From: Nannocystis pusilla
GTDB lineage: Bacteria > Myxococcota_A > Polyangia > Nannocystales > Nannocystaceae
Assembly (NCBI RefSeq): GCF_049337375.1
Contig: NZ_JBMPIV010000015.1
DNA length: 35,397 nt
Reading direction: 5' to 3' (one strand)
In this document: positions 10,596 to 33,176 of the stretch, piece by piece
Layout: every line of letters starts with the position of its first letter
Position numbering within the stretch: position 1 is the stretch's first letter
Notes under the pieces: model-generated
The model's input: only the letters and a program-made list of their open reading frames with translations
Database searches by the model: none
Told to the model about the DNA's origin: nothing
Position numbers and translations under genes: made by a program

Positions 10596-11050
10596 ATGCA
10601 CGATTCATCGCCCACCGGGTCGGAGCGACAGATTCTTCGCCCCACGGGTATGTTCATACCTCGGGGATACAGCCACGGCGTCCGCACGTCCGGCGGAGCG
10701 CTGATCTGCGTCGCCGGCCAGTCCGGGCGCGATTCAAGCGGCGCGTTGCGACGGTGAGGTCGTGGCGCAGACCCGTCAGGCGCTGATCAACCGTCGTCGC
10801 GGCCGGTGGGGGCACCATGGCCGCCGTCGTCCGGCTCGGCGTGCCGGTGACGAACATGGCCGACTTTCTCGCCCACTCGGTCGAGCTGGCGCTGCTGTTC
10901 CGGATGTTCTTCACCGCTGGCCTGCCAGCGATGTCGCTGCCCGAGGTCGTGCGCTTCATGGATCCCGCCGTGCTGATCGAGGTCGACGCGATGGCCGTCG
11001 TCTCCGAGCGGACGCCAGGGTCGCGCGCGTGCTTGGGCTGCAGGACGTGA
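10596..11050 (+). pseudogene. RidA/YjgF/TdcF-family (reactive-intermediate deaminase) pseudogene disrupted by two frameshifts
   Basis: RidA-like segments in three frames: MHDSS…FIPRGYSHGVRTSGGALICVAGQSGRD (frame 0), GEVVAQTRQALIN (frame 1), MAAVVRLGVPVTNMADFLAHSVEL…PAVLIEVDAMAVV (frame 2); shifts near 10745 and 10790. Confidence 0.55.
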
Positions 11051-13158: not shown

Positions 13159-13950
13159 ATGACCGACACGAACACCTACGCCCTCGCTGACGCCGCCCAC
13201 GACGCCGAGCTCGCCCGCCTGCGGACCATCGAGGCCGACTGGGACGCCAAGACGCGGCGGCACCTCCAGGACCTCGGGCTCGGGCCGGGACATCGCTGCC
13301 TCGAAGTCGGCGCCGGGGCCGGCGGCGTCGCCAGATGGCTCTCGGGACAGGTCGGTCCGGGCGGCAAGGTCGTCGCCACCGACATCGACCCGCGCTTCCT
13401 CGCCGACCTGAACGCCGACAACATCGAGGTGCGCCGCCACGACATCGCCGTCGACCCGCTCGAGACCGACAGCTACGACCTGGTCCATTGCCGCGTCCTT
13501 CTGATCCACATGCGCGACCCGGCGGCCGTGCTGCAGCGGATGTTCGCCGCCCTGCGGCCGGGCGGCGCCTTCCTGTTCGAGGAGACCACCGGCCGCGCGG
13601 GCTCCGGCGCTCCCGGCTGGAGCGGCGCCGCGGCCTTCGACCGCGCCGAGGCGCGATACCTCGCCATGCTCGCGGCGATCGGCGTGCGGATGACCTACGG
13701 CGCCCATCTGCCGGGCCTGCTGCTCGGGCTCGGCGCGGTCGACGTCGGCGCCGAGGAGACCGCACACCTGCTGCGACCCGGCCCGCAGCTCGCCCTCAGG
13801 CTGGCGACCGTACGAGCCTTGCGCCCCCACGCGGTCGCCTCCGGCTCGTTCACGGAGGCCGAAATCGACGAGTACTGCGCCCTGCTCGCCGACCCCGACC
13901 TCGTCGCCGTCAACTCGCCCCTGATCAGCGTGTGGGGCCGCAGGCCCTGA
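13159..13950 (+). CDS. class I SAM-dependent methyltransferase
   Basis: Motif I LEVGAGAGGVARWL and acidic-loop VVATDID; start at M37 of ORF 13051..13950. Confidence 0.75.
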   Translation: MTDTNTYALADAAHDAELARLRTIEADWDAKTRRHLQDLGLGPGHRCLEVGAGAGGVARWLSGQVGPGGKVVATDIDPRFLADLNADNIEVRRHDIAVDPLETDSYDLVHCRVLLIHMRDPAAVLQRMFAALRPGGAFLFEETTGRAGSGAPGWSGAAAFDRAEARYLAMLAAIGVRMTYGAHLPGLLLGLGAVDVGAEETAHLLRPGPQLALRLATVRALRPHAVASGSFTEAEIDEYCALLADPDLVAVNSPLISVWGRRP

Positions 13951-14286: not shown

Positions 14287-14979
14287 GTGAACGGGTCCAG
14301 GGGCAACGGCGAGACGCGCGAGGCGATCCTCGACGCCACCGATCGGCTGCTGACGACCCGGGGGTTCCGCAGCGTGACGATGGACGATATCGCCGGCGAG
14401 GCGGGGGTCAGCCGCCGGACTGTCTACATGTACTTCCCGAGCAAGGAAGAGGTCGGGCTGTCGTCGATCGACCGGGTGGTAGCGCAGACCTACGCACGGC
14501 TGGCGGCGCTGGCCGGCGGGGGCGGCGATCCGGCCGAGGTGCTGCGCGCGGTGCTGATCGAGCGGGTGCTGCGGCGGCTCGACAGCGTCAGCGCGTACCG
14601 CCAGAGCCTCGACGAGCTGTTCGAGGCGGTGCGGCCGGGGTACATGGCCCGAAGGACAGCCCACATGGAGCGCGAGGTGGCGCTGGTGGCCGGGATCCTG
14701 GCGGCCGGCGTGGCGTGCGGGCGGTTCGAGCTCGAGGACGCGGCGGCGACGGCGTCGACCCTGGTGAAGGCGACCAACGCGTTCCTGCCGTACAGCCTGA
14801 GCGTCGCCGAGCTCGGCGAGCGGGCGAAGGTCGAGGTCGAGGTCCGGCGCATGGCGGCGCTGCTGCTGAAGAGCGTGGTCGCGCCGGAGCCTCGACGTGG
14901 GGCGAAGCGGCCGACGCGGGCGAAGCCGACACGGGGCAAGCCGGCGCGGGCGCGAGCTCGGACGCGTGGCGCGAAGTGA
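14287..14979 (+). CDS. TetR-family transcriptional regulator
   Basis: N-terminal HTH (ETREAILDATDRLLTTRGFRSVTMDDIAGEAGVSRRTVYMYFPSKEE); GTG start at 14287 downstream of the operators (the ORF's ATG at 14233 lies inside operator 1). Confidence 0.75.
   Translation: MNGSRGNGETREAILDATDRLLTTRGFRSVTMDDIAGEAGVSRRTVYMYFPSKEEVGLSSIDRVVAQTYARLAALAGGGGDPAEVLRAVLIERVLRRLDSVSAYRQSLDELFEAVRPGYMARRTAHMEREVALVAGILAAGVACGRFELEDAAATASTLVKATNAFLPYSLSVAELGERAKVEVEVRRMAALLLKSVVAPEPRRGAKRPTRAKPTRGKPARARARTRGAK
14641..14670. repeat. repeat-family copy (TACATGGCCCGAAGGACAGCCCACATGG) inside the TetR coding sequence
   Basis: shares the GACATGGCCCGAAG extension with copies at 20946 and 30573; atypical codons cga agg aca. 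Confidence 0.5.
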
Positions 14980-15000: not shown

Positions 15001-16134
15001 ATGCGATTGTCGACAGTGATCCTCGGTTGGTTGGCGCTATCCACGGTGCACACGATCGGTTGCGCGAAGGCGGCGGTCGCCAGTCCGGACGCGACGCCGC
15101 CGACCTCCGGCGGGCCGCAGATGGCCGTGCCGAAGGCGCCGCCGCCGAGAGGACCGGACGGGCCGATCACCGCGGCGGAGCGCGAGGAGGCGGTCGAGGC
15201 GCTGGCGCGCGAGCTGACGGCGAAGTACGTGTTCCCGGACAAGGCGAACGAGGTGGCCAGGGTGATCCGCGCCCGCCGCAAGCGCGGCGAGTACGACAAG
15301 ATCACGACGGGCCACGCGCTGGCGACGACGCTGACGAACGACATCAACGAGGTGCTGCGTGACGCGCACTTCCACGTCCGCTTCAGCAAGGAGACGCTGC
15401 CGCCGCAGCAGACCGAGGGGAAGCCGTCGGCCGAGGAGCTGGCCCGCTTCGAGGACTTCTCGCGCCGCATGAACGGAGGGTTCGAGAAGGTCGAGCGGCT
15501 GCCCGGCAACATCGGCTACCTGGAAGTCCGCGGGTTCGCCTTCCCCGGCCGCGGGTTCGAGGCGGCGTCGGCGGCGATGGCGTTCCTGGCGGAGACCGAC
15601 GCGCTGATCGTCGACCTCCGCCGCAACGGGGGCGGGTCGCCGGAGATGGTGGCGTACCTGTGCAGCTATCTGTTCGACGAGCGGGTCCACCTGAACGACC
15701 TGTACTTTCGGCCAGCCAACGAGACGCGCCAGTTCTGGACGGCGCCGGTGCCGGGCAAGTCCTACGTGGGCCGCGAGGTCTACGTGCTGACGAGCCCGCG
15801 CACCGGCTCGGCGGCGGAGGAGTTCGCGTACAACCTGAAGAACCTGGGGCGGGCGACGATCGTCGGCGAGGTGACGTGGGGCGGGGCAAACCCGGGCGAT
15901 ATGGTGCGCCTCGGCGACCACTTCAGGGCGTTCGTGCCGACGGGCCGGGCGATAAACCCGATCTCGAAGACGAACTGGGAGGGGGTGGGCGTGCAACCCG
16001 ACATCGCAGTGCCGGCCGAGGACGCGCTGCGGGTGGTCCAGGTCAAGCTGATCGAGCAGCAGATCGCCAAGGCGACGGACCCGGAGCTGAAGGCGGAGCT
16101 GGAGGAGCGGCTCCGCGAGCTGCAGCCGAAGTGA
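15001..16134 (+). CDS. S41-family (tail-specific/IRBP-type) peptidase lipoprotein
   Basis: AAGGAGGTGA Shine-Dalgarno before ATG 15001; lipobox HTIGCAK; motifs LIVDLRRNGGG and TGSAAEEFAYNLK. Confidence 0.85.
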   Translation: MRLSTVILGWLALSTVHTIGCAKAAVASPDATPPTSGGPQMAVPKAPPPRGPDGPITAAEREEAVEALARELTAKYVFPDKANEVARVIRARRKRGEYDKITTGHALATTLTNDINEVLRDAHFHVRFSKETLPPQQTEGKPSAEELARFEDFSRRMNGGFEKVERLPGNIGYLEVRGFAFPGRGFEAASAAMAFLAETDALIVDLRRNGGGSPEMVAYLCSYLFDERVHLNDLYFRPANETRQFWTAPVPGKSYVGREVYVLTSPRTGSAAEEFAYNLKNLGRATIVGEVTWGGANPGDMVRLGDHFRAFVPTGRAINPISKTNWEGVGVQPDIAVPAEDALRVVQVKLIEQQIAKATDPELKAELEERLRELQPK

Positions 16135-18420: not shown

Positions 18421-20316
18421 CTAGGAGGCGGGGACGGGCTCGGCCCCGAGGTCGCGGGCGAGGTCGGCGAGCTCGCCGATCGGGACCTGCAGCGCGGGCA
18501 GACGGGTGATGTCGGCCCGCGCGGCCTGGGCGATCGACTCGCTGGCGCGCATGATGAGGCCGCCGTTGGCGTCGGCGACGACGGTGTAGCCGGCCTTGCG
18601 CAGGCGGGCGAGCCGGGCCTGGGCGGCGGGGGTGAGGTCGGTGGCGGTGATGCGCAGGGATGGCACGCGGCCGGGCCAGAGGGCGGCGAGGTAGGCGGTG
18701 ATCCGCGGCGGGTAGACGACGCCGCCGGCTGTCTTTTCGTTCAGGTGGACGTCGACCAGCGCGGGGTAGCCGTGCACGTCGCAGCGGACCGCCCCGTGCA
18801 AGTGGCTGGTCCACATCGCCTCGGGGCTGACGGGCGCGGGCCACAGGCGGTCGAACCACGCGGCGATGGCGTCGTAGCTGGGGAGGCGCTGGCCGCCGAG
18901 CGCGTCGCCCAGGCGCTGGACCTCGGCGCCGAACCGCTCGCCGCGCTCCTCCCGGCGCAGGCGCAGGAGGATGGCGAGGACGGCGATGGCGATGGCGGCG
19001 TACCACAGGCCGAACAGCAGCAGCCCGCCGCAGACGATGGCGGCGAACAGGAGGCCGAGGCCGCCGTCGCGGACCTGTTGCTGGCGCCGCTCGTCGGCGT
19101 GGCGCGCCAGGAGGGCGCGGCGAGCGACCGCGAGGGCGCTGGCGGGGATCCGGCCCTCCGGCTCGGGGCCGGCGAGGTCGGGGCGATCGGGGAGGAAGGA
19201 GCGGACGGCGGCGATCAGGTCCCGGGTCGCGGGCGAGGCGGGGCTGTCGGCGGGCTCGCGCACCGCGGCGACCACCAGCGGCGCCTCGGCCAGACCGCCG
19301 GGCGGGGCCGCCAGCCCCGCCGTGGCCGAGGGGGTGCTGAGGCTGGCGCCGGAGCGGTTGGAGAGGATCGCCAGGAGCGAGGAGTTCGACGGGCTCATCG
19401 CGGCGCCCGGGAGGGTGTCGCTGGCGGCCGTCCGCGCGGCCGGGTCGCGGGCGAGGCTGGCCCCGAGGCCAGGTGCCTGCTCGCGCGGGGCGGGCAAGGG
19501 GCCGGACAGCGCGGCGGGGTCGAAGCCGGGAGCGACCGCGGTGCGGAGGCCCGGCGCGGCGGGTGAGCTGTCTGCAGGGACAGGTGATGAGGAGGCGCGG
19601 AGGGCGGCGAGGTGGCTGTCCGAAGGGACAGATGATGGCCGGCTGTCCGTGGGGACAGGCGGGGATCGCGTGGCCGCGGGGTCGAGGTCATGGCTGTCCG
19701 TGGGGACAGGCGGCCGGTGGCTGTCCGCAAGGGCAGGTTGATGGAGGCTGTCCGCAAGGACAGGCGCATCGACGGGCAGGGACAGCTGGGCCGGCTCCGG
19801 CGCGGCGTCGTGCCCGTGGGCGGCCAGGCCCGCGGCCGGCTCGGCCGACAGGGGGCCGGGGCGGGCGTCGGCCCAGCGGCCGGGGCGGGGGCCCTGCAGG
19901 GTGTCGCCGGGCTCGGGGGCGGCGAGCGGAGCGTTGCTGTCTCTCAGGACAGGTCGCAGGGGAGCCGGGACGGCGGGCGGCGGGGCCGGGCCGATCGAGA
20001 GCAGGGTGGTCGGCGGGACGGGCGCGGCGAGCAGCCTGGCCGAGGGCCCGGGCTGGTGGCGCGCGTGGAGCCGCGGGCTCGGCGGCGGGGCCTTGGCGTC
20101 GGGTTCGGGGCTGACCTTCGGGACAGGTGCGCTGTGGACCAGGTCGCTGACGGCCTGCTGGATCGCCCGCTCGTAGAGGGCCAGAGCGTCGGCGACGGCC
20201 GGCGGCAAGCCGTGGGGCTGCCGGCAGGCGGGGCAGTCGGCGGCGTCGCGGAGGTCGGCGAGCGAGAGCGCGTGCTGGCAATGCGGGCAGCGCAACGCGA
20301 GCGTCGGAGAGAGCAC
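18421..20316 (-). CDS. membrane-anchored protein: N-terminal zinc ribbon (CPHCQ…CPAC), long Pro-rich linker containing a six-unit repeat array, one TM helix, C-terminal globular domain of unknown function; 5' end uncertain (GTG 20316 or TTG 20295; the ORF opens at 20754)
   Basis: C-terminal ~220 aa non-repetitive and protein-like (…FDRLWPAPVSPEAMWTSHLHGAVRCDVHGYPALVDVHLNEK…); 4-nt gap to the downstream gene suggests an operon. Confidence 0.5.
   Translation of the reverse strand: MLSPTLALRCPHCQHALSLADLRDAADCPACRQPHGLPPAVADALALYERAIQQAVSDLVHSAPVPKVSPEPDAKAPPPSPRLHARHQPGPSARLLAAPVPPTTLLSIGPAPPPAVPAPLRPVLRDSNAPLAAPEPGDTLQGPRPGRWADARPGPLSAEPAAGLAAHGHDAAPEPAQLSLPVDAPVLADSLHQPALADSHRPPVPTDSHDLDPAATRSPPVPTDSRPSSVPSDSHLAALRASSSPVPADSSPAAPGLRTAVAPGFDPAALSGPLPAPREQAPGLGASLARDPAARTAASDTLPGAAMSPSNSSLLAILSNRSGASLSTPSATAGLAAPPGGLAEAPLVVAAVREPADSPASPATRDLIAAVRSFLPDRPDLAGPEPEGRIPASALAVARRALLARHADERRQQQVRDGGLGLLFAAIVCGGLLLFGLWYAAIAIAVLAILLRLRREERGERFGAEVQRLGDALGGQRLPSYDAIAAWFDRLWPAPVSPEAMWTSHLHGAVRCDVHGYPALVDVHLNEKTAGGVVYPPRITAYLAALWPGRVPSLRITATDLTPAAQARLARLRKAGYTVVADANGGLIMRASESIAQAARADITRLPALQVPIGELADLARDLGAEPVPAS
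19568..19770. repeat. array of six GCTGTCCGNNGGGACAGG(T/C)G units with irregular 27-51 bp spacing, encoding PVPTDS(H/R)-type peptide repeats in the linker of the 18421..20316 protein; more copies at 19935-19955 and 20108-20140
   Basis: read directly from the sequence. Confidence 0.8.
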
Positions 20317-20692
20317 GGCGGGACCATACCGCAGAACACGGGCGGCGGACCGGCCTGCGGGCGCGGGCGTGGGCGCGCAGGCGGAGGGGGCGGGCCGGGA
20401 GCGACGACGGCGGGTGTCGGCGGCGAGATCGCCGAGCGGGCTCGTCGGTGGCGACGGTCCCGAGCGCGGTCGAGATCGCGGCGGGGCGCGTGACGAGATC
20501 GACAGGGTCGGGCGGTGAGGTCGGTCCGCGAGGCGGGACGCAGTTCGTGGGTGGGGAGCCGGTAGCGGCGCCGTGCGGCCGGGACCGCGGAGCGGTGACG
20601 GGGCGGCGCCGGGCGCGGGCGAGGATGCGCGCGGCGGCGACTCGCGGTATGAGGAGGCGCCGCGCGCGACCGGCGGGCGGCGAGCTTTTACC

Positions 20693-23404
20693 GTGCCCGA
20701 TCTGCCCGTCTCGCCTCCTTCGCCCCGCGGCCTCGATCTCCCCGGCGCCGCCACTCAATTCGCGCCGCTCGTCGACGAGCGGCTGGCCAACGGCGCCCGC
20801 CTGCTGATCCTGCCCGGGCGACCGGCCGGGGCCGGGCCGGCGGCGGTGCAGCTGTGGGTCGGCTCGGGCACGGCGGCCGAGCGAGAGGACGAGCACGGCT
20901 GCGCCCACCTGCTCGAGCACATGCTCTTCAAGCCATGTGTTTTGGGACATGGCCCGAAGAGCAACCGCGCGCGCCTGGCTGCGGCCGGGGTGCGGCGGGC
21001 CGAGGAGGCGTTCGACCTGGCGGGCGCGATCGAGGCGCTCGGCGGCGACATCAACGCGTTCACCAGCCACGACGAGACGGTGGTCCACGTGACTACGCCG
21101 GCGGCCCGCGCGGCCGAGGCGGCGGCGCTGGTGGCCACCGCGACGCTGTTCCCGACGCTCGACCCGGCCACGCTGGGGCAGGAGCGCGAGGTGGTGATCG
21201 AGGAGATCAAGCAGTACGACGACGATCCGGGCCAGCGGGTGACGCAGGCGGCGCTGTCGCGGGTGTACGGGGCGCACGCGTACGCGCGGCCGGTGCTCGG
21301 CCTGGCGGAGGAGGTCGCGGGGCACTCGGCGGCGCGGCTGCGCGGGTATCACCGGCGGGCCTACGCCGGCGAGCGGCTGACTCTGGTGGCGGTCGGCGCG
21401 GTCGACGTGGCGGCGCTGCGCAAGGTGGCGCGGGCGATCGTCGGCGCGCTGCCGGCGGCCAAGAGGCGCGCGACGGCGGGCGAGCCGGCGGCGAAGCCGG
21501 GGGTGACGCTGCGCCGCGCCGAGGTCCAGGAGACCTACGCGCTGCTGGCCTGGCCGGCCCCGGCGGCGGGCGCGGCCGAGGCGGCGGCGATCGACGCGGC
21601 GGCGGTGGTGCTCGGCAACGGCGAGTCGTCGCGCCTGGTCGCCGAGACACGTCGCAAAGAACAGGTCGTCTCGGACATCCAGGCCCACTGCGACACGCTG
21701 CGCCACGGCGGGACGGTGATGGTGTCGGCGCGCACGACCGCGGGCCAGACGGCGGCGGCGGTGGCGGCGGTGCTGGCCCAGGTGCGGCGGCTGGCGGACG
21801 CGCCGGTGTCGGCCGAGGAGCTGGCGCGGGCCAAGGCGATCCTCGAGAGCGACCTGGTGTACCGGCGCGAGACGGTGCAGGGCCAGGCCCACGCGCTCGG
21901 GGCCTGCGCGACGCTGTTCGGCGACCTGGCCCGCGAGCGCGAGTACTACGCGGCCCTGGCGGCGCTGACGCCCGAGGCGGTCCGCTCGGCCTGCGCGCGC
22001 TGGCTCGACCCGGCGCGCGCGAGCGTCAGCCTCGAGCTGCCGCGCGCGGAGGTGGATGTCCAAACGGCCAGGTCGATCAAGGCCGCGGTGGCCGAGGCGC
22101 TGAAGCCGGCGCCGACGCCGGGGCGCGCCGGGGCGACGCCGCGCCGGGCCAGCGACGGGATCGAGACGGTGACCCTGGCGTGCGGGCTGCGCCTGCTGGC
22201 GCGGGTCGAGCCGGCGGTGCCGGTGGCGGCGGGCTGGCTGATCTGGCCGGGCGGGCTGCGGCGCGAGCCGGCGGCGCTGGCCGGCGCGAACTCGGTGATC
22301 GCGGCGCTGCTGACCCGCGGCAACGCCCGCACCGGCGGCGAGGCGCTGAGCCGGGCGATCGACGGGATGGCCGCGGGGCTCGACGGCTTCGCCGGCCGCA
22401 ACAGCCTGGGCCTGCACTTCGAGTGCCTGAGCCGCCACTTCCCGGCGGTGCTCGGGCACGCGCTCGACTGCGCGACGACACCGAAGTTCGCGGCCGACGA
22501 GCTCGAGGAGGAGCGGCGGGTGGCGCTGCAAGATCTGGCGGCCGAGGTCGACGACCCGGGCGCGGTGGCCAGCCGCGGGCTCAACGCGCTGCTGTACGGC
22601 GAGCACCCGTTCAGCCGCCCGGGCCGCGGCACGCCGGCCGGCCTGCGGGCGCTGACGCCGGCCAAGCTGCGGGGGCTGTGGCGCCGCGACTACCCGATCG
22701 GGCAGGCGGTGCTGGCCCTGGCCGGCGACATCGACGTCGCGGCGGCGGCGGCTCAGGTCGAGGCGGCGCTGCGCGAGGCTGGCCTCGGGGACAGGCTGTC
22801 TGAAGGGCCAGGTGCGCCGAAGAAGTTCGCGGCGCCGACCGGGCCGCGCGAGCGCGAGATCTTCCAGGACCGCGAGCAGGCCCACATCGCCCTCGGCTGG
22901 CCGGGCATCGCCGTGGGCGACGAGCGCGAGCCGACCCTCGACGTGCTCAGCGCGGTGCTCGGCGGCCAGACCGGGCGGCTGTTCACGGCGCTGCGCGAGG
23001 TCCAGGGGCTGGTGTACGAGGTGTCGATGAGCAGCGTCGAGGGCCTCGACGCCGGCCACGTGGCGATCCACGCGTCGACGAGCCAGGACAAGCTGCCGAA
23101 GGCGATGGCCGCGATCGCGGCGGAGGTCGAGCGCGCGGTGCGAGAGCCGCCGTCGGCGGCGGAGGTCGAGCGCGCCAAGGCGTGGCTGGTCGGCCAGTTC
23201 GAGCTCGGCCAGCAGCGCCGCAGCCGGATGGCGTCGCTGCTGGCGCTGTCCGAGGTCTACGGGCTGCCGCGCGCGCGCGCGTTCGCGTACCCGCAGCGGG
23301 TCGCGGCGGTGACCGCCGAGGGGGTGTGGGCGCTGGCGAGGACGCTGTTCCGCCCGCAACGCGCGGCCCGCTGCGTGGTCCGGGCGCGCCGGCGCAAGGG
23401 CTGA
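20693..23404 (+). CDS. two-unit M16-family (pitrilysin-like) zinc metallopeptidase carrying an 18-aa in-frame insertion right after the HxxEH motif
   Basis: HLLEHMLFK…DINAFTSHDETVVHV plus second M16 unit; GTG 20693 start is an inference (the ORF opens at 20573). Confidence 0.75.
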   Translation: MPDLPVSPPSPRGLDLPGAATQFAPLVDERLANGARLLILPGRPAGAGPAAVQLWVGSGTAAEREDEHGCAHLLEHMLFKPCVLGHGPKSNRARLAAAGVRRAEEAFDLAGAIEALGGDINAFTSHDETVVHVTTPAARAAEAAALVATATLFPTLDPATLGQEREVVIEEIKQYDDDPGQRVTQAALSRVYGAHAYARPVLGLAEEVAGHSAARLRGYHRRAYAGERLTLVAVGAVDVAALRKVARAIVGALPAAKRRATAGEPAAKPGVTLRRAEVQETYALLAWPAPAAGAAEAAAIDAAAVVLGNGESSRLVAETRRKEQVVSDIQAHCDTLRHGGTVMVSARTTAGQTAAAVAAVLAQVRRLADAPVSAEELARAKAILESDLVYRRETVQGQAHALGACATLFGDLAREREYYAALAALTPEAVRSACARWLDPARASVSLELPRAEVDVQTARSIKAAVAEALKPAPTPGRAGATPRRASDGIETVTLACGLRLLARVEPAVPVAAGWLIWPGGLRREPAALAGANSVIAALLTRGNARTGGEALSRAIDGMAAGLDGFAGRNSLGLHFECLSRHFPAVLGHALDCATTPKFAADELEEERRVALQDLAAEVDDPGAVASRGLNALLYGEHPFSRPGRGTPAGLRALTPAKLRGLWRRDYPIGQAVLALAGDIDVAAAAAQVEAALREAGLGDRLSEGPGAPKKFAAPTGPREREIFQDREQAHIALGWPGIAVGDEREPTLDVLSAVLGGQTGRLFTALREVQGLVYEVSMSSVEGLDAGHVAIHASTSQDKLPKAMAAIAAEVERAVREPPSAAEVERAKAWLVGQFELGQQRRSRMASLLALSEVYGLPRARAFAYPQRVAAVTAEGVWALARTLFRPQRAARCVVRARRRKG
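20924..20977 (+). repeat. 54-bp element-derived in-frame insertion (CCATGTGTTTTGGGACATGGCCCGAAGAGC…) encoding PCVLGHGPKSNRARLAAA inside the M16 peptidase
   Basis: compared with the canonical HxxEHMxFKGT spacing recalled from MPP-beta and pitrilysin; atypical codons tgt gtt ttg gga cat. Confidence 0.6.
22787..22816. repeat. repeat-family copy (GGGGACAGGCTGTCTGAAGGGCCAGGTGCG) in-frame in the M16 inter-unit linker
   Basis: read directly from the sequence. Confidence 0.55.
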
Positions 23405-23429
23405 GCCCCTGTTCTCCGCGACAGGTCGA

Positions 23430-23459
23430 GAGTGACATGTCCCCGGGGACATGTCACTC
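23430..23459. repeat. perfect 30-bp palindrome GAGTGACATGTCCCC|GGGGACATGTCACTC built from the repeat core, filling the convergent gap between the M16 gene and the next gene
   Basis: reverse complement equals itself, checked base by base. Confidence 0.9.
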
Positions 23460-23468
23460 GGGCCATGG

Positions 23469-23897
23469 TCAATCGTCGTCGGGCTCGACGTCCGGGTGGG
23501 CGACCCGGCGCGCGCCGGCGACCGTGAGGTACTCGTCGCGGTCGCGCAGGCGGTCGACTCGCAGGTCGCCGCCGACGTAGAACTCGGTCTCGAAGATGGC
23601 GAGCTCGCGGGCGACGAGGTCGCCGAGGACGACCGCGCACATCAGGCGGTCGGACACGCAGAGGTCGCCGCGCACCGTGAGGCTGCCGGTGACGACGATG
23701 GTGCCGATGTCGTCGGGGGCGGCGGCGAGCTGCAGCTGCGACCAGTGCTCGTCGCCGAGCCAGGCGTCGCCCTCGACGGTGAGGTCGCCCTCGTAAACGG
23801 CGCAGGCGCAGCCGTAGCGGCCGCCCGAGGCGAGGCGGGCGAAGGTGCCGTGGCGGCGGTCGAGCTCGGCTTCGCTGATGACGACGGGCTTCAGCAC
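23469..23897 (-). CDS. hypothetical protein with a beta-helix/bactofilin-like periodic pattern (GDLTVEGDAWLGD…TGSLTVRGDLCVSD…VGGDLRVD)
   Basis: GTG start at 23897; the ORF's upstream extension to 23957 is encoded by a repeat copy at 23950-23991 (GAGGACATGTTGGATAGAACATGGCGAAAGGGTCATGTTCGA). Confidence 0.45.
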   Translation of the reverse strand: MLKPVVISEAELDRRHGTFARLASGGRYGCACAVYEGDLTVEGDAWLGDEHWSQLQLAAAPDDIGTIVVTGSLTVRGDLCVSDRLMCAVVLGDLVARELAIFETEFYVGGDLRVDRLRDRDEYLTVAGARRVAHPDVEPDDD

Positions 23898-25147: not shown

Positions 25148-25228
25148 GAAGACTGTCCGAAGGGACAGGTGGTCGTGGCGAGCCGGTCGGTCGAGGCGAG
25201 AAGACTGTCTGAAGGGACAGGTGGCGGC
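25148..25228. repeat. two direct copies (54-bp period) of GAGAAGACTGTC(C/T)GAAGGGACAGGTGG filling the convergent gap between the PDZ lipoprotein and XRE genes
   Basis: read directly from the sequence. Confidence 0.85.
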
Positions 25229-25963: not shown

Positions 25964-26210
25964 TGAGTGGCGAGAACGTGGCGGAACGCCTGGCCTGCAG
26001 GCGCTGGCGTCGATCAGCAGCGATGCGCGTGGACGCGCGGGCGCCGGAGCGTTGTGGCGGGGACCACACGGATCTGCTCCAGGTTCTGGGTGGGCGAAGT
26101 CGCGCAAGGTCGATCCCCGCAGGCGATCAAGCCGTTCGCGTCGGGACGAGTCGCGCCACGAAGGCGCTCGCGCGCCCGGGTGAGGCTGGGCGTCGGCCTC
26201 GCGTGTCTGC

Positions 26211-26332
26211 GAGGACATGCGCGCGAGGACATGCGCGCGAGGACATGCGCGCCAGGGCATGCGCGAGGACATGCGCGCGAGGACATGCGCGCGAGGACAT
26301 GCGCGCGAGGACATGTCCGAGAGGACATGCCC
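26211..26332. repeat. microsatellite-like tandem array, about nine units of GAGGACATGCGCGC (14 bp), ending in GAGGACATGTCCGAGAGGACATGCCC. An expansion of the repeat-family half-site
   Basis: read directly from the sequence; lies just 3' of the stop at 26347. Confidence 0.9.
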
Positions 26333-26346
26333 TCGGAGCCAGCGGC

Positions 26347-28128
26347 TCAGGCGGCGGAGGCGACGCCGAGGGTGCGGGCGAGGGCGCGGGCGACCGCGAG
26401 GGGGCGGCCCTTGAACACGCGGACGTACGGGATGGCGCTGGCCCGGGCGGCGCGGGCGAGGATCCCGTCGATGTTGTGGGCCTGGAAGCCGGTGGCGATG
26501 AGCACGTAGTCGTAGCTGTGGCGCGAGATGCTCTCGCACTGGGCCTGGACCTTGCGGGCGTTGCCGTCGCACCAGGTGATGTCGAGGCCGAGCGACTCCT
26601 CGAGCTTCGACTTGAGGTCGGGGTCCTCGCGGTTGCTGACGAACAGGACCCGCTTGCCCTCGACCTTGGGCCGGACCTGGGCGACCAGGTGCGCGCCCGG
26701 ATCGTCGACGTCGTCGGTCTCTTCCTCGAGGTCGCTGTCGCTGTCGGACGGCAGCACGCCGAGCTCGCCGCGCTTGATCACGTCCTGCAGGCCGGTGAGG
26801 CGGCGACGCATGCGGCGGTCCTCGAACAGGTCGGGGCGCAGGGCGTCGATGCGCGGGCGGATCGGCTGGACCAGCGACGCGACCTCGGGCGTGTTGTGGG
26901 CGTCGAAGGCCCGGCCGAGGAAGGCGAGCAGGGCCTCGTCGTCGAAGCTGTCGGCGGCGACCAGGGCGTCGCGTTCGGCTCGCACCGCCGCTTGCTGCTG
27001 GCGGACCTGATCGGCCGAGGGCCCGGTCTTGGCGCGCTCGGGCGGCGGGATGAACTCGGGGTCGAGCCAGCGGCGCAGCTGCGGCAGGCGCTCGCCGAGG
27101 CGCCCCGCGAGCCAGCGCAGGCGGCCCATGACGGCGCCCCAGGTCTCGGGGTCCTCGGCGGCGATGAAGCGACGGATGTCGCGCAGCGCCTGGGCGTGCT
27201 TGACGAGCGCGTCGAGCTGCTCGTTCGGCAGCTCCTCCGGCGGCGTGGTCAGGTGGCGCGGCGGCGGGTCGGTGACGTTGCCGGCGATGGCCTCGACGGC
27301 GCGCTGGGCCTCGCGCAGGAGGGCGCGCGGCTGGCCCGGCGGGGCCTTGCGCGGGCGGTCGGCCCAGCCGTAGTCGTCGACCGGGACCTCGCTGGTCATC
27401 GCGCGCTCGCGATGGTTCTGCACGAACTCGTGCGCCTCGGCCCAGGTCTTCGGCGCGTGCAGCGTCTTCAGCCCGAGCTCGGTGACCACGCACGCGGGCA
27501 CCGCGTTCATCTGCAGCGCCTGCACCGAGCCGGGCCACAAGGTCTTGCTGAGGTTCGTCAGCTCGTGGGCGATCCGCCGCACCAGCACGGTGATCTTGTG
27601 CTCGCCCTGGAACTGCTCGTCGAAGCTGCGCGCGCGGGAGATCCACGCCAGCATGTAGACCTTCTGATAGCGCGGCGACATCAGCGCGAAGTCGGGCCGC
27701 ATGTCCTGGATGTCCTTGAGGATCTCTTCCAGGGTCTCACGCGCCTCGGCGACCGCAGCAGCGGGATAAGTCGGTAGCTGGATCCGGCCGACGATCGGGC
27801 TGCGCGGTAGCTCGGGCTGCTCGGGCGCGGCGGGCGGGGCGGTGGGGATAACTTCGGGGGATACTGCGGCGCTGGGTGGCGCCGCCTGCGGACGGGCTGG
27901 CTCCTGGAGGCCGTCGCGGAAGCGATCGAAGAGTTGACGCGCGGCCGCCGACGGAAACATCTGCGTCAGCGCATCTTCGAGGGCGCTGTCACGATCGGGT
28001 CCGCGGCCGAGCCACCGCTCCGTGTCGCGCCAGATCAGCACCTCGGTCCACTGATGGGTATACATCGCGTGGCGGTAGCCGCTGTCCGCGAGAAACTTGG
28101 GTAGCCAGCGCGCGCCGTCGTCGTGCAT
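26347..28128 (-). CDS. hypothetical protein (593 aa); acidic linker and conserved-looking C-terminal domain
   Basis: long non-repetitive ORF with typical codon usage; lies 180 bp downstream of FabG on the same strand. Confidence 0.55.
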   Translation of the reverse strand: MHDDGARWLPKFLADSGYRHAMYTHQWTEVLIWRDTERWLGRGPDRDSALEDALTQMFPSAAARQLFDRFRDGLQEPARPQAAPPSAAVSPEVIPTAPPAAPEQPELPRSPIVGRIQLPTYPAAAVAEARETLEEILKDIQDMRPDFALMSPRYQKVYMLAWISRARSFDEQFQGEHKITVLVRRIAHELTNLSKTLWPGSVQALQMNAVPACVVTELGLKTLHAPKTWAEAHEFVQNHRERAMTSEVPVDDYGWADRPRKAPPGQPRALLREAQRAVEAIAGNVTDPPPRHLTTPPEELPNEQLDALVKHAQALRDIRRFIAAEDPETWGAVMGRLRWLAGRLGERLPQLRRWLDPEFIPPPERAKTGPSADQVRQQQAAVRAERDALVAADSFDDEALLAFLGRAFDAHNTPEVASLVQPIRPRIDALRPDLFEDRRMRRRLTGLQDVIKRGELGVLPSDSDSDLEEETDDVDDPGAHLVAQVRPKVEGKRVLFVSNREDPDLKSKLEESLGLDITWCDGNARKVQAQCESISRHSYDYVLIATGFQAHNIDGILARAARASAIPYVRVFKGRPLAVARALARTLGVASAA

Positions 28129-29257: not shown

Positions 29258-29545
29258 ATGACAGAGACCGCGCCGCCCGAAGCCCTGGTCCGCGAGATCA
29301 AGGAGCTCATCATCGAGGCCCTGATGCTGCAGGACATGACCCCCGAGGACATCGACCCGGAGGCGCCGCTTCTGGTCGAGGGGCTGGGCCTCGACTCGAT
29401 CGACGTGCTCGAGCTGGCGATGGCCATCGGCAAGAAGTACGGCGTCAAGACCCGCGCCGACGACGCCCAGAACCGACACATCTTCGCCAGCGTGACCAAC
29501 CTGGCCCGCTTCGTCGCCGAACAGCGCGCGCCGGCGGCGAGCTGA
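29258..29545 (+). CDS. acyl carrier protein
   Basis: GLDSID phosphopantetheine-attachment motif; 95 aa. Confidence 0.85.
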   Translation: MTETAPPEALVREIKELIIEALMLQDMTPEDIDPEAPLLVEGLGLDSIDVLELAMAIGKKYGVKTRADDAQNRHIFASVTNLARFVAEQRAPAAS

Positions 29546-29553
29546 GGCCCGAC

Positions 29554-30204
29554 ATGGCGGACCCGAACGGCGAGCCGCGGCGAGCCGCGGGGGTCCCCAG
29601 GTGGGTGCCCGCGGTGCTGCGGTCGGTGGTGATCGGCGGCTATCCGCTGGTCGTGTACCTCGGCATGACGCGCTGGAGCCCGCGCACCCTGGCGCTGGTG
29701 CTGGCGGTGGCGCTGCTCCCGGGGCTTCTGCTGCGCCTGCGCGAGGCCCGGCGCGAGGACCTGTGGCCGGTGCTGCGGGTGCCGCTGTCGCTGTTCGGGC
29801 TGTTCGCGGCGGCGGCGCTGTCGGGCGAGCAGCGGCTGTTCATGGCCCTGCCGGTGCTGGTCAACCTGGGCCTCTTGGCCAACTTCGCCGCCAGCCTGCG
29901 CGGGCCGGTGTCGCTGGTCGAACGGTTCGCACGCCTGCAGGAGCCCGACCTGCCGCCCGGCGGGCCGGCGTACTGCCGCACCTGGACCAAGATCTGGTGC
30001 GGTTTCTTCGTCGCCAACGCGGCCGTCAGCGCCGGCCTGGCGCTGTGGGCCCCGGTGGCCTGGTGGACGCTCTACACCGGACTTTTGGCCTACCTGCTGA
30101 TCGGGGTAATGTTCACCGTCGAGTTCGTCGTCCGCAAGGCGACCTTCCGTCGCTTCGGCGACGGGCTGCCCGACCGCCTGCTCCGCCGACTGCTCCGCGC
30201 ATGA
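29554..30204 (+). CDS. integral membrane protein of the lipid cluster
   Basis: multiple TM helices; stop overlaps the next start (ATGA at 30201-30204). Confidence 0.65.
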   Translation: MADPNGEPRRAAGVPRWVPAVLRSVVIGGYPLVVYLGMTRWSPRTLALVLAVALLPGLLLRLREARREDLWPVLRVPLSLFGLFAAAALSGEQRLFMALPVLVNLGLLANFAASLRGPVSLVERFARLQEPDLPPGGPAYCRTWTKIWCGFFVANAAVSAGLALWAPVAWWTLYTGLLAYLLIGVMFTVEFVVRKATFRRFGDGLPDRLLRRLLRA

Positions 30205-32255
30205 AGTCGTTCGCCCCGCTCGTCCACACCGATCCCGCGGCGCTCGTCGCCGTGGGCGAGGCCGGCGCGCGCACGGCCGGCGAGCTCATGCGCGACGCGA
30301 GGGCCGTCGCGGCGCGGCTGCCGGCGCCGATGCCGGGGAGCGAGGTGCTGGTGGTGTGCGGCGACCGCTACCACCTGGCGGTGACGACCCTGGCGGCGTG
30401 GCTGCGCGGCCACGCGGTCGCGCTGCCGCCCAACGCCCAGCCGGCGGCCGTGCGCGAGCTGGCCGGGCGGCCGTCGGTGGTCGCGCTGCTGCACGACTCC
30501 GACCTGGCCGACGCGCAGGACGTCCGCGAGTGGCTGGAAGGACATGTTTCAGGGGACATGGCCGATCCGACATGGCCCGAAGCGCTGGCGCCCGATCGCC
30601 GGCTGGCGGTCGTGTACACCTCGGGCAGCACCGGCGATCACCAGCCGTGCGCCAAGACGGCCGCGCAGCTGCTCGGCGAGGCGCAGGCGCTGGCGGCCAC
30701 GTTCGCCCTGCGGGCCGGCGAGGTGGCGCTGGCGACGGTGCCGCCGTACCACCTCTACGGGCTGCTGTTCGGGATCCTGGCGCCGCTGGCTGCGGGGGCG
30801 GCGTTCGCCCGCGAGACGCCGCTGCACGCCGAGACGGTGGCCCGGGCGGCGCGGCAGGTGGAGGCGACGGTGCTGGTCAGCACGCCGGCGCACCTGCGCG
30901 GGCTGACGGTGCTGACGCGCGGCGACCTGCCGCCGCTGTCGCGGGTGTTCTCGTCGGGCGCGCCGCTGCCGCGGGCCACCGCCGACGAGCTGCTGACCAA
31001 GCTGGGCCTGCAGGTGACCGAGGTGTACGGCTCGTCGGAGACCGGCGGGATCGGCTGGCGGCGGCACGAGGATGTTTTAAAAGACATGTCCCCGGAGCCA
31101 GCCTGGACGCCGCTGCCGGGAGTGACGGTCGAGGTGGCGGCCGAGGGGCGGCTGCTGCTGCGCTCGCCGTTCTTGGCCCCGGACGCGCCGGTGCCGTACC
31201 CGTGCGAGGATCGCGTCGAGGTCGACGCGCGCGGCGGGTTCCACCTGCGCGGGCGGCTCGACGGGGTGGTGAAGATCGCCGGCAAGCGGGTGGCGGTGGC
31301 CGAGGTCGAGCAGCGCCTGCTGGCGCTGGCGGCGGTGGCCGACGCCGCGGTGGTGGCGGTCGAGTCGCCGGGCGCGCGCGGGCACGAGCTGGTGGCCGCC
31401 GTGGTGGCGCGCGAGGCCGGGCGCGACGCCGCCGAGCTGGTGGCCGAGCTGCGGCGGGCGCTGCTGCCGTGGTTCGACCCGGTGGTGGTGCCGCGGCGGA
31501 TCAAGGTGGTGCCGGCGCTGCCGCGCGAGCCGAGCGGCAAGCTGACGCGGCGCAAGCTGCACGCGCTGCTCGGGCTCGCGGGCGAGGAGGAGAGTGCGTC
31601 GGGTGGCGCGAAGGACATGTCTGTGAGGACAGATGCCGACGCAGCGAGCGCGGGTCCGAGGCTCGGTGGCGCGAGGGACATGTCCGCGGGGACAGAGGCC
31701 GCACCAGAGCGCGGTGGCGCGAGGGACATGTCCGCGGGGACAGAGGCCGCACCGGAGCGAGGTGGCGCGAGGGACATGTCCGCGGGGACAGATGCCGATC
31801 CGGAGCGCGGTGGCGCGAGGGACATGTCCGCGGGGACAGAGGCCCATGGGGCGTCGTGGGGTGTCTCGCGAGACATGTCCGCGGGGACAGGTGGCGCGTC
31901 GGCGTTCGCGCTGGGCGGCCACGCGCGGCGCGACGAGGGCGGGGCGGCGGTGCACGAGGTCGAGGTGGGGGTGCCGGTCGACCTTGCGTTCTTCTGCGGG
32001 CACTTCGACGCGCTGCCGGTGCTGCCGGGGGTGGCGCAGCTGACCGCGCTGGTGGTGCCGCAAGTGGCGGCGCTGCGGCCGGAGCTGGGGCCGCTGAGGC
32101 GGGCGGCGCGGCTGAAGTTCACCCGGCCGATCGCGCCGGGCGACGCGCTGGTGCTGCGGCTCGAGGTCCGCGGGACTCAGGTCCGCTTCTCGTTGGCGCG
32201 GGCCGGCGAGGTGGTCACGGCGGGGGCGCTCGAGTACGAGGCGCGCGGAGGCTGA
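30201..32255 (+). CDS. AMP-dependent synthetase/ligase fused through a 5.5 x 16-aa repeat linker to a FabA/FabZ-like hotdog dehydratase domain
   Basis: YTSGSTG and GSSETGG AMP-binding motifs; FFCGHFDALPVLPGVAQL matches the hotdog dehydratase active-site motif; the true ATG at 30201 overlaps the upstream stop. Confidence 0.8.
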   Translation: MKSFAPLVHTDPAALVAVGEAGARTAGELMRDARAVAARLPAPMPGSEVLVVCGDRYHLAVTTLAAWLRGHAVALPPNAQPAAVRELAGRPSVVALLHDSDLADAQDVREWLEGHVSGDMADPTWPEALAPDRRLAVVYTSGSTGDHQPCAKTAAQLLGEAQALAATFALRAGEVALATVPPYHLYGLLFGILAPLAAGAAFARETPLHAETVARAARQVEATVLVSTPAHLRGLTVLTRGDLPPLSRVFSSGAPLPRATADELLTKLGLQVTEVYGSSETGGIGWRRHEDVLKDMSPEPAWTPLPGVTVEVAAEGRLLLRSPFLAPDAPVPYPCEDRVEVDARGGFHLRGRLDGVVKIAGKRVAVAEVEQRLLALAAVADAAVVAVESPGARGHELVAAVVAREAGRDAAELVAELRRALLPWFDPVVVPRRIKVVPALPREPSGKLTRRKLHALLGLAGEEESASGGAKDMSVRTDADAASAGPRLGGARDMSAGTEAAPERGGARDMSAGTEAAPERGGARDMSAGTDADPERGGARDMSAGTEAHGASWGVSRDMSAGTGGASAFALGGHARRDEGGAAVHEVEVGVPVDLAFFCGHFDALPVLPGVAQLTALVVPQVAALRPELGPLRRAARLKFTRPIAPGDALVLRLEVRGTQVRFSLARAGEVVTAGALEYEARGG
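30537..30584. repeat. repeat-family copy (GAAGGACATGTTTCAGGGGACATGGCCGATCCGACATGGCCCGAAGCG) in-frame in the ligase, encoding EGHVSGDMADPTWPEA just before the YTSGSTG motif; a second copy at 31071-31099 encodes DVLKDMSPEP
   Basis: atypical codons (gtt tca, aca, gaa, tta aaa). Confidence 0.7.
31603..31905. repeat. tandem array of about 5.5 units of 48 bp, each GGTGGCGCGAGGGACATGTCCGCGGGGACAGAGGCCGCACC(A/G)GAGCG(C/A), encoding (ERGGARDMSAGTEAAP)n between the ligase and dehydratase domains
   Basis: read directly from the sequence; not CRISPR-like because the units have no unique spacers. Confidence 0.9.
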
Positions 32256-32403: not shown

Positions 32404-33176
32404 AAGCCGGGGCCGCGGCGTTCCGGCCGTGCGCGCTGATCCCGACCTTCGACAACCCGCGGACGGTGCGGGACGTGGTGCTGCGGGTCAAGGCGCACCT
32501 GCCCGACGTGGTGGTCATCGACGACGGCTCGGGGCCGGAGGGCCGCGCCGCGGTCGAGGCGCTCGGGGCGGAGGGGCTGGCGCACGTGCGGCGACGGCCG
32601 CACAACGGCGGCAAGGGGGCGGCGGTCAAGACCGGGTTCCAGTTCGCCCACGAGCTCGGCTACACCCACGCGCTGCAGGTCGACGCCGACGGGCAACATG
32701 ACCTGGGGGACATCCCGCAATTCCTCGCCACCGCGCGCGAGCGGCCGGACGCGCTCGTCCTCGGGGCGCCGGTGTACGACGCGTCGGCGCCCAAGGGGCG
32801 GCTCGTCGCCCGCAAGATCACGCTGTTCTGGACCAACTTCGAGGCGGGGCGCGGGGTCATCACCGACCCGATGTGCGGCTTCCGCGTGTACCCGCTGGCG
32901 CCCGCGCTGGCGCTCGGGCGCACCGGCGACCGCATGGACTTCGACATCGAGATCGCGGTCCGCCTGGTGTGGGCGGGGGTGCCGGTGATCAACCTGCCGA
33001 CCAAGGTCCGCTACATCGGCCGCGACGAGGGCGGAGTGTCGCACTTCCGCGTGTTCGGCGACAACGTCAAGATCTCGTGGCTGCACACCCGGCTGTCGTT
33101 CCAGCGGGTGATGGTGCGCCCGTGGGTCAACCTCTACCGCCGCCTGCGCCGCCCGGCGCTGCCGGCCGGCCGCTGA
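32361..33176 (+). CDS. family-2 glycosyltransferase (polyprenyl-phosphate sugar transferase-like)
   Basis: GGGAGG Shine-Dalgarno 6 nt before ATG 32361; …ALIPTFDNPRTV…VVVIDDGSGPEG…QVDADGQHD motifs. Confidence 0.8.
   Translation: MSADGGQDVSRGTGEAGAAAFRPCALIPTFDNPRTVRDVVLRVKAHLPDVVVIDDGSGPEGRAAVEALGAEGLAHVRRRPHNGGKGAAVKTGFQFAHELGYTHALQVDADGQHDLGDIPQFLATARERPDALVLGAPVYDASAPKGRLVARKITLFWTNFEAGRGVITDPMCGFRVYPLAPALALGRTGDRMDFDIEIAVRLVWAGVPVINLPTKVRYIGRDEGGVSHFRVFGDNVKISWLHTRLSFQRVMVRPWVNLYRRLRRPALPAGR

Follow-up and report, generated by a model that had tools for sequence, protein, structure and literature searches.

The colonization of genes by selfish palindromic repeats, in frame with the host protein, is usually deemed a peculiarity of Rickettsia and is tied to small populations and weak selection. 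Among other short prokaryotic repeats, the REP, BIME and REPIN elements are mobilized by REP-associated tyrosine transposases (RAYTs), typically lie just past stop codons, clustered in tandem or in alternation, and vary between close relatives; transposable elements of the miniature inverted-repeat kind (MITEs; e.g., ERIC, BOX, Correia/NEMIS and those of cyanobacteria) are 50–500 bp long, with terminal inverted repeats and target-site duplications; and uptake sequences are known from Neisseria and Haemophilus. REPs occasionally occur inside coding regions (Di Nocera et al., PMC3733652; reviewed in PMC10969869), and intragenic MITEs can create in-frame fusions with host open reading frames (ORFs; PMC10969869). 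As summarized in two later articles (PMC10969869, PMC3733652), the Rickettsia palindromic elements (RPEs) of Ogata et al. (2000) are repeats of about 100–150 bp that sit in frame in conserved, functional protein genes, encode a recognizable conserved peptide, and are also present in non-coding DNA. The present analysis concerns a gene for an M16 metallopeptidase in a 35,397-nt stretch of DNA of Nannocystis pusilla (72.5% G+C; hereafter the window), in which a palindromic repeat was in all likelihood inserted, in frame and long ago, directly after the zinc-binding motif, and was tolerated there much as RPEs are.

Gene calls in the window were based on ORFs and the G+C content of third codon positions (GC3), together with Pfam. 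The gene (20693–23404, plus strand) specifies a protein of 903 aa with four domains (M16 and M16_C, each twice) and matches P0001, an N. pusilla protein annotated as "M16 family metallopeptidase", with 100% identity. A Pfam search of this protein returned the active domain, PF00675 (E = 1.3e-27, 96.9 bits against a cut-off of 22.3), and two copies of the inactive domain, PF05193 (E = 9.5e-55, 185.7 bits), in agreement with its preliminary description as an M16 peptidase. The HLLEH zinc-binding and catalytic motif (H72, E75 and H76; 20906–20920, plus strand), an inverted zincin HxxEH motif, can be read directly from the sequence and its columns are invariant in 107 orthologs, as are the distal glutamates E164 and E171 of the segment EREVVIEE (21182–21205, plus strand). 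In the M16 family a distal glutamate, located in an ExxxxxxE segment about 70–76 residues past HxxEH, acts as a zinc ligand; in the N. pusilla protein the spacing between H76 and E171 is about 95 residues instead of about 76 because the insert lies between them. By analogy with the known structures of mitochondrial processing peptidase (MPP) and pitrilysin, E171 is presumably the third zinc ligand, an assignment that follows the established ligands of M16 enzymes (H70, H74 and E150 of yeast MPP-beta). The AlphaFold model of the whole protein (pLDDT 92.5) displays the clam-shell fold of four alpha/beta domains, and its top Foldseek matches are PqqL (6ofs, E = 3e-40), FusC (6b03, 6e-37), and insulin-degrading enzyme (IDE) and pitrilysin (1q2l), the last two at about 1e-30. 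With these four enzymes it has in common HxxEH, the distal glutamates and the occurrence of M16 and M16_C twice per chain, although sequence identity is just 13–18%; among four-domain bacterial M16 peptidases, only those of Nannocystis carry 18 inserted residues between zinc ligands two and three.

The protein reads HLLEHMLFK-PCVLGHGPKSNRARLAAA-GVRRAEEAFDLAGAIEALGGDINAFT, exactly as first quoted, and the claim that 18 extra residues follow the zinc motif is borne out by an 18-residue gap right after HxxEHMxFK in alignments with the solved M16 enzymes 3amj and 3hdi (phmmer, E ~1e-31), and by a K..N loop of 40 aa compared with 22 aa in the nearest outgroup orthologs, which read CCC TTC GCC AAG GGG GGC CCG CCC GGG GAT (PFAKGGPPGD). 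The extra codons had been placed at 20924–20977; the segment itself stands, as P81–A98 (PCVLGHGPKSNRARLAAA), but on the plus strand it occupies 20933–20986, nine nucleotides further on, with the MLFK codons at 20921–20932, and which 18 of the residues 81–107 (20933–21013) are additional is not decidable from the alignment. The match to PF00675 is likewise broken, being split into three stretches, the best of which lies downstream of the insert and starts no earlier than profile position 50. Loop length is 36–41 aa in Nannocystis (P0001–7), 26–39 aa in a sister clade of "Nannocystis sp." metagenome-assembled genomes (MAGs; P0008–28), and has a median of 23 aa (range 19–48) in 91 more distant orthologs; PDB homologs and about 45 other Nannocystaceae loci lack the long loop. 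The window shares the insert, down to its unusual codons, with six further assemblies of cultured Nannocystis (L001–L006), the M16 DNA of L001–L005 being 89–97.5% identical to that of the window. Since it is present in all of these, the insert is old and not an assembly artefact, and from the sequences compared the insertion appears to be ancient and fixed rather than recent. In one of the six assemblies (L006, N. pusilla Na p29), the reading frame of the M16 gene is shifted by 1 nt, compared with all other genomes, near position 10810 (M16 codon ~270); the likeliest explanation is an error in the assembly of long reads and not a pseudogene.

The proposal that a repeat family exists in this DNA was well founded. 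TGTCC-N4-GGACA occurs exactly 18 times in the window, where shuffled sequences gave an expectation of 0.02, and GGACATGTCC, with up to one mismatch, 22 times compared with 0.83 expected. The consensus of a single unit spans about 22 nt (ggcTGTCCgnrgGGACAggtg); its core is free of stop codons in all six frames, and abutting units, in which GGACA is followed directly by TGTCC, form tandem arrays with a 14-bp period. Position frequencies in 93 copies showed no conserved sequence beyond these ~22 nt, the flanks being R-S-M upstream and K-G-T-S downstream. With a refined weight matrix, 45 clusters were found in the 35 kb of the window, against a background of 0.37 matches per 10 kb in 571 kb of repeat-free relatives at the same threshold, and the density in the window is about 5 exact and 11 near-exact cores per 10 kb. 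A 28-nt two-unit pattern is carried by 72 separate metagenome contigs, showing that the family is interspersed. The density of exact cores per 10 kb is 4–6.6 in the loci of six cultured Nannocystis, 0–2.5 in the sister clade, and essentially zero in about 45 other Nannocystaceae loci, so that family density tracks loop class: the same taxa have, respectively, long, intermediate and short loops. The repeat has no family match in Rfam, and a search of a paper library found no description of such a repeat in Nannocystis or the myxobacteria.

Within the insert, the part that can be derived from the repeat (20933–20963) consists of two decayed 14-bp units, recognized by a relaxed position weight matrix (PWM), by matches to other family copies, by orthologs, and by their A/T-ending codons. 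Core 1 (20936–20949, TGTGTtttgGGACA) differs from the family core at two positions and core 2 (20950–20963, TGGCCcgaaGAGCA) at three; the best matches outside the gene are 14/14 to a copy at 30569–30582 and 13/13 to a copy at 14642–14654. The relaxed PWM, which was iteratively refined, gives core 1 17.8 bits and core 2 9.0 bits; scores of at least 16 occur at 0.245 per 10 kb in repeat-free relatives, or about 0.001 expected per 54 nt. It is used as supporting evidence only, because the CATG spacing accounts for most of its signal and because it gives scores to the conserved EHMLFKP codons as well. The atypical codons noticed at the outset are real: in a gene with a GC3 of 96.1%, where 35 of 903 codons end in A or T, they make up 5 of the 11 codons at 20930–20962 (binomial P = 3e-5). 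Over the whole gene they gather at the insert and at three further repeat-like sites (B–D, below), whose combined 48 codons hold 16 of the 35 (P = 6e-13).

The comparison with orthologous DNA is the decisive evidence that the insert is a family copy, as far as sequences can decide it. An exact GGACATGTCC lies in the same loop in L061 (+4 aa, about one unit) and L007, and cores with one mismatch are found there in L008, L035, L064 and L065. In L007, L008, L035, L064 and L065, the codons GGA/GAA CAT GTC CCR ARG G.. are located at the position and in the frame of GGA CAT GGC CCG AAG AGC in the window, while the loop of L008 contains two near-perfect units (TTGCCCGAGGAACATGTCCCGAGGAACATGT), and L065 and L044 have two units in loops that are 8 to 9 aa longer. 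Exact cores occur in other frames in L063 (TGTCCcgaaGGACA) and L066 (TGTCCtcgcGGACA), read as PCPG... and AMSSRTG. Together with GHVPK, all three reading frames of the unit are thus represented at one loop, which places its origin at the DNA level and excludes an explanation at the level of the peptide. The deep Nannocystis lineages L067 and L068 keep CCA TGT CCx where the window has TGTGT, and since they retain the canonical TGTCC, the TGTGT of the window is a derived, decayed form. The preliminary description had compared the insert to an RPE, and this is supported by its absence from PDB and outgroup homologs, by the confinement of the family to lineages with long loops, and by the units of the sister clade. 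Its absence from the ~45 Nannocystaceae orthologs, and the presence of the segment with the same atypical codons in members of the genus, likewise fit the insertion first proposed. From empty loop, to +4 aa with about one unit, to two units, to a decayed +18 aa, the orthologs catch the process at several stages, and make the M16 loop a clean natural experiment on repeat DNA becoming protein.

In the AlphaFold model the insert has a pLDDT of 95–97 and comprises a strand (82–83), a helix (91–97) and a second strand (107–108), situated between the HxxEH helix (70–77) and the next helix (109–115). A model of the short-loop ortholog P0030 has an identical order of secondary structures, by DSSP comparison, with only coil (53–65) at the position of the insert. 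An added helix is therefore supported as far as can be drawn from DSSP strings and pLDDT only: the insert is modelled as a self-contained addition whose ends meet, a short extra helix between α1 and α2 closed by a beta-bridge, with the remaining fold unchanged. Because it sits between the second and third zinc ligands, the label "enzyme core" is true of it in sequence; structurally it is a length-variable loop. Gene-wide dN/dS among close species is 0.13–0.39; the gene is under purifying selection and, judged by its sequence, appears functional, with all catalytic residues kept. The insert has too few sites for a verdict of its own and tends to less constraint (8 non-synonymous and 2 synonymous differences to L005), and it could be functionally near-neutral. 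A likeness of NRARLAAAGV to the helix that follows (DLAGAIE) was considered as a possible duplication and discarded, being weak and seen by eye alone.

The course of events that best joins these data can be outlined as follows. An interspersed mini-palindrome with the unit TGTCC-N4-GGACA is very abundant in Nannocystis genomes. In an ancestor shared by the cultured species of the genus and the sister MAG clade, one or two units would have entered the M16 gene at the loop that links the HxxEH helix to the one after it, with a net length that was a multiple of three. As this loop tolerates changes in length, the catalytic residues would have been kept and the insertion fixed. In the crown genus the loop presumably grew to +18 residues, after which the repeat part decayed by substitution (TGTCC to TGTGT, GTC to GGC, and GGC to AGC), and the insert would now be an ordinary stretch of the protein, where the model has a short extra helix.

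Several observations weigh against this account. Neither a target-site duplication, nor a pair of empty and filled sites, nor a mobilizing enzyme was identified, and a Pfam search revealed no transposase (RAYT included) among the ORFs of the window, so that insertion by transposition is not demonstrated. The 54 bp had been described as a repeat copy throughout; this holds for about 31 nt (20933–20963, the first 10–11 codons), whereas no family copy matches the codons that follow (NRARLAAA...), which leaves NRARLAAAGVRR without a counterpart in the family. A strict PWM built from perfect cores only scores the insert below 8 bits and misses it, and the assignment to the family leans on the orthologs and on the CATG-dominated relaxed PWM. 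The loop is also prone to indels without any repeat: 9 of the 91 distant orthologs have loops of at least 26 aa that lack the motif, and the loop of L042 shows plain GAGAGA slippage. If loop length had simply drifted by slippage or duplication, across a range of 19–48 aa in 119 orthologs, and the resemblance of the degenerate window copy to the family were fortuitous, motif-free long loops such as those of P0039, P0056 and L042 would be expected. There is, however, only the faintest chance that drift is the whole explanation, and chance resemblance is effectively excluded: exact cores, of which about 3e-5 are expected per 60-nt loop, lie at the same spot in two lineages and one-mismatch cores in six more; long loops that bear the motif are confined to genomes that have the family; and both the rarity of relaxed-PWM matches in 54 nt and the clustering of A/T-ending codons in the insert argue against it. 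In the outgroup L042 itself (5441–5548), the loop reaches 36 aa through simple GCC GGT and GAG GGC repeats (GAGAGAGAGAGEGEGEG), and therefore tolerates unrelated insertions as well.

Three other repeat-like sites in the M16 gene bear on a different possibility, namely that unit-like sequence arises or is copied in place, as with HIP1 or uptake sequences, through biased repair, gene conversion or uptake-linked recombination that overwrites permissive DNA, even in an expanded loop. Site B (21636–21681, M16 residues 315–330) is a weak stretch resembling three units (PWM 10–15 bits; 4 of 15 codons end in A/T) within a conserved, indel-free region; it has a run of A/T-ending codons (ACA CGT CGC AAA GAA, with ... 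GTT in relatives) and 14-bp spacing, the sister clade has G/C-ending codons there, and it may be a chance match. Site C (22052–22075, GTGGATGTCCaaacGGCCAGGTCG) is a single unit-like sequence (PWM 17.7–18.9 bits) in a poorly conserved helix, aligned without any difference in length. Site D (22775–22815, GAGGCTGGCCtcggGGACAGGCTGTCTgaagGGCCAGGTGC), two units in the inter-domain linker (PWM 15–18 bits; 5 of 14 codons end in A/T), is what had been reported as a second in-frame copy at 22787–22816: as a family match it stands (18/19 to 25205–25223), but not as an insertion, because the linker, at 44 aa, is within the outgroup range of 41–48 and nothing has been added to its net length. The absence of a net length change at sites B, C and D, which is likewise unfavourable to the insertion reading and is unexplained by a pure insertion model, keeps the in-place alternative alive. 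It is also favoured by the share of copies in ORFs, about half, and by their density, which falls within the range of densities of uptake signal sequences (USS) and DNA uptake sequences (DUS). In the same direction points the placing of the A/T-ending codons that are fixed genus-wide, 7 of 8 in the gene being at the insert and sites B–D, although the strong Fisher result obtained for them mostly restates that ancestral A/T-ending codons sit in repeat-like sites. Motif drive without transposition may thus explain sites B–D. As the source of the insert it is improbable, given that loop length follows unit content (+4 aa for about one unit in L061, +8 to +9 aa for two in L065 and L044), that intergenic arrays change by whole units and arrays within ORFs by whole 48-bp units, and that a process of substitution only cannot add 54 nt.

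The insert also forms one arm of an inverted repeat. The left arm (20922–20938, plus strand, TGCTCTTCAAGCCATGT) covers the conserved codons M-L-F-K-P-C, and the right arm (20947–20963, plus strand, ACATGGCCCGAAGAGCA), inside the insert, is complementary to it at 15 of 17 positions; the predicted RNA fold of 20915–20970 has -26.2 kcal/mol and z = -4.6, with none of 200 shuffles as stable, and a hairpin is also predicted in L002–L005, z being between -3.8 and -5.0. By RNA folding none is predicted in L067, the sister clade and one outgroup. A snap-back template switch during replication could have made the second unit as an inverted copy of the upstream MLFKPC codons, rather than as a family copy, and the window copy departs from the canonical unit by two substitutions, both of which strengthen the pairing. 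This origin has slightly less in its favour than motif drive and is correspondingly improbable, since the sister clade has a homologous unit at the same position and in the same frame (GGA CAT GTC CCG AAG G..), without upstream complementarity or a hairpin (z > -0.9). As the deep lineage L067 lacks the hairpin too, the complementarity appears to be secondary, and a quasipalindrome "correction" of an existing unit is likelier than an origin de novo.

An element retained for a function in nucleic acid, such as an mRNA or DNA hairpin over the active-site codons (with translational pausing or mRNA stability as its effect) or a protein-binding site, would be compatible with an origin by insertion. 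It accords with the strength of the hairpin in five species, with the positions at which species differ, in the apical loop or so as to extend the stem (the exception, 20956 in L002, breaks one pair beside the internal loop), and with the codons CCA, TGT, GGA and CAT, which are invariant across six species. However, synonymous sites gave no significant sign of constraint on the repeat or the hairpin by themselves (of 11 in the stem, 1 varies against a baseline of 28%, P ~0.14), any palindromic unit beside unit-like sequence yields such a hairpin, deeper lineages keep the insert without it, and there is no Rfam match; retention for this reason is unlikely, if less so than the two preceding alternatives. 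The hairpin would be either the result of quasipalindrome correction or a by-product of a palindromic unit beside fortuitously unit-like sequence, and from the predicted folds a function for it is possible. In-frame insertion of the repeat, followed by decay, remains the reading we prefer for the M16 insert.

Copies of the family elsewhere in the window illustrate its behaviour in coding and non-coding DNA. Of the 38 cores with at most one mismatch, 10 fall in coding stretches that Pfam supports and another 10 in conserved ORFs. A canonical copy (TGACATGTCCccggGGACATGTCA; 23433–23470; RNA fold -24.2 kcal/mol, z = -3.5) lies in the short gap that follows the M16 stop codon (23404) and reaches into the last two bases (23469–23470) of the convergent ORF downstream. 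In L003, L004 and L006 the M16 stop codon and the gene after it are separated by a further ~0.9 kb, which is flanked by repeat units and probably holds a gene with abundant Cys-, Gly- and Thr-type repeats; the corresponding interval of the window (23405–23468) lacks this DNA, as do L001 and L005. The ORF at 29496–32255 (plus strand) encodes AMP-binding and AMP-binding_C domains together with a FabA-like dehydratase domain, and the linker between them consists entirely of six 48-bp repeat units (GGARDMSAGTEAAPER; 31593–31902, plus strand; repeat search families D1/D5), which read in frame as (G)ARDMSAGT and have Pfam domains on both sides. DMS motifs in this linker number seven in the window, five in L004, three in L003 and two in L001, the frame always being kept. 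A non-coding array with a 14-bp period (family D2 of the repeat search) lies at 26195–26351, and in the minus-strand ORF 18421–20754, copies at 19564–19767 follow one another at 27 or 51 bp and encode PVPTDSH-type repeats in frame. This ORF is conserved in L001–L006, has no Pfam match, carries an N-terminal CxxC...CxxC motif, and in its low-complexity region contains units of this type, at the same spacings, across 19564–20130. The periods of arrays within ORFs are all multiples of three (27, 48, 51, 63, and 3x14 = 42; e.g., 19617–19749 and 31681–31876), which looks like a selection filter on frame, and those of non-coding arrays are 14 or 52 (e.g., 26204–26314). Intergenic clusters vary in unit number between species with 97% identical M16 genes.

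Other repeat-like stretches and repeats were noted in passing. Two lie inside the AMP-binding domain (30526–30577, EWLEGHVSGDMADP; 31068–31105, HEDVLKDMSPEP, with the codons GAT GTT TTA AAA) and are conserved across Nannocystis species, the PDB homologs being too distant to align them as insertions or otherwise. Single unit-like sequences at 14640–14663, 15696–15719, 13331–13354 and 32694–32717 fall in Pfam-supported parts of, respectively, a TetR regulator, an S41 peptidase, a methyltransferase and a GT2 glycosyltransferase. All 15 single units with a readable orientation (3' GGT rather than 5' ACC) point one way, whatever the strand of the gene, and the GC skew of the window is positive. A comparison of orientation with replication strand on the 72 metagenome contigs (22 agreeing, 8 disagreeing) was dropped, its criterion (3' GG or 5' CC) being confounded with GC skew. 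Two 300-nt direct repeats (1047–1658; 84% identical) with sub-repeats of 150/162 nt, unrelated to the palindrome family, are contained in a minus-strand ORF.

The outcome usually associated with Rickettsia is thus encountered in a free-living myxobacterium, as an insertion between two zinc ligands of a conserved enzyme that has been kept throughout the genus. It could be speculated, rather tentatively, that a hitherto undescribed, hyper-abundant and stop-free mini-palindrome (about one cluster per kb), entering ORFs about as readily as intergenic DNA, supplies routine raw material for protein loops and linkers, and that the 15/17-bp hairpin is at the same time conserved for a function. If the former is true, the M16 loop, reused in three frames across lineages, and the linker of 2–7 units between the AMP-ligase and FabA-like domains are examples of it. 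Should the window be representative of the whole genome, the family's contribution to new loops and linkers would be measurable, and the repeat would also be a practical nuisance for gene calling and indel-aware alignment in Nannocystis.

Compared with known repeats, the family resembles REPs and REPINs in being an imperfect palindrome of 20–40 nt that is clustered and high in copy number. It differs from them in having no GTAG or CGTC tetranucleotide in the consensus of 93 copies, in its location, which is not predominantly extragenic, about half of the copies being intragenic, and in the lack of a RAYT or other transposase among the window ORFs. Unlike MITEs, it lacks terminal inverted repeats, has nothing conserved beyond ~22 nt and shows no duplication at variable sites. 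With cyanobacterial HIP1 and with USS/DUS it has in common a short motif over-represented in coding and non-coding DNA, inverted pairs downstream of genes, and sites (B–D) without an indel. Those motifs, however, spread by biases in substitution or recombination, whereas the Nannocystis loop and linkers gain whole units: sites B, C and D fit a change in place, and the M16 insert, the AMP-binding/FabA-like linker and the intergenic arrays change by whole units. The likeness is closest to the RPEs, insofar as these are portrayed in the summaries cited above, as the Nannocystis repeat is likewise found in frame in a conserved and functional gene, is tolerated, vertically inherited, and also present in non-coding DNA. 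The two have no sequence relationship, and the Nannocystis unit is only 14 bp (22-nt consensus), in inserts of 1–7 units that are read in three frames, in place of the ~100–150 bp and the conserved peptide of the RPEs; because size and sequence differ, the family is not a member of the RPEs. The hosts are also dissimilar, a free-living bacterium of 72–73% GC, whose genus has chromosome-scale contigs reaching 13.2 Mb, on the one hand, and a reduced intracellular genome on the other. The Nannocystis insert nevertheless works like an RPE, and is a known phenomenon in a new repeat family and a new host.

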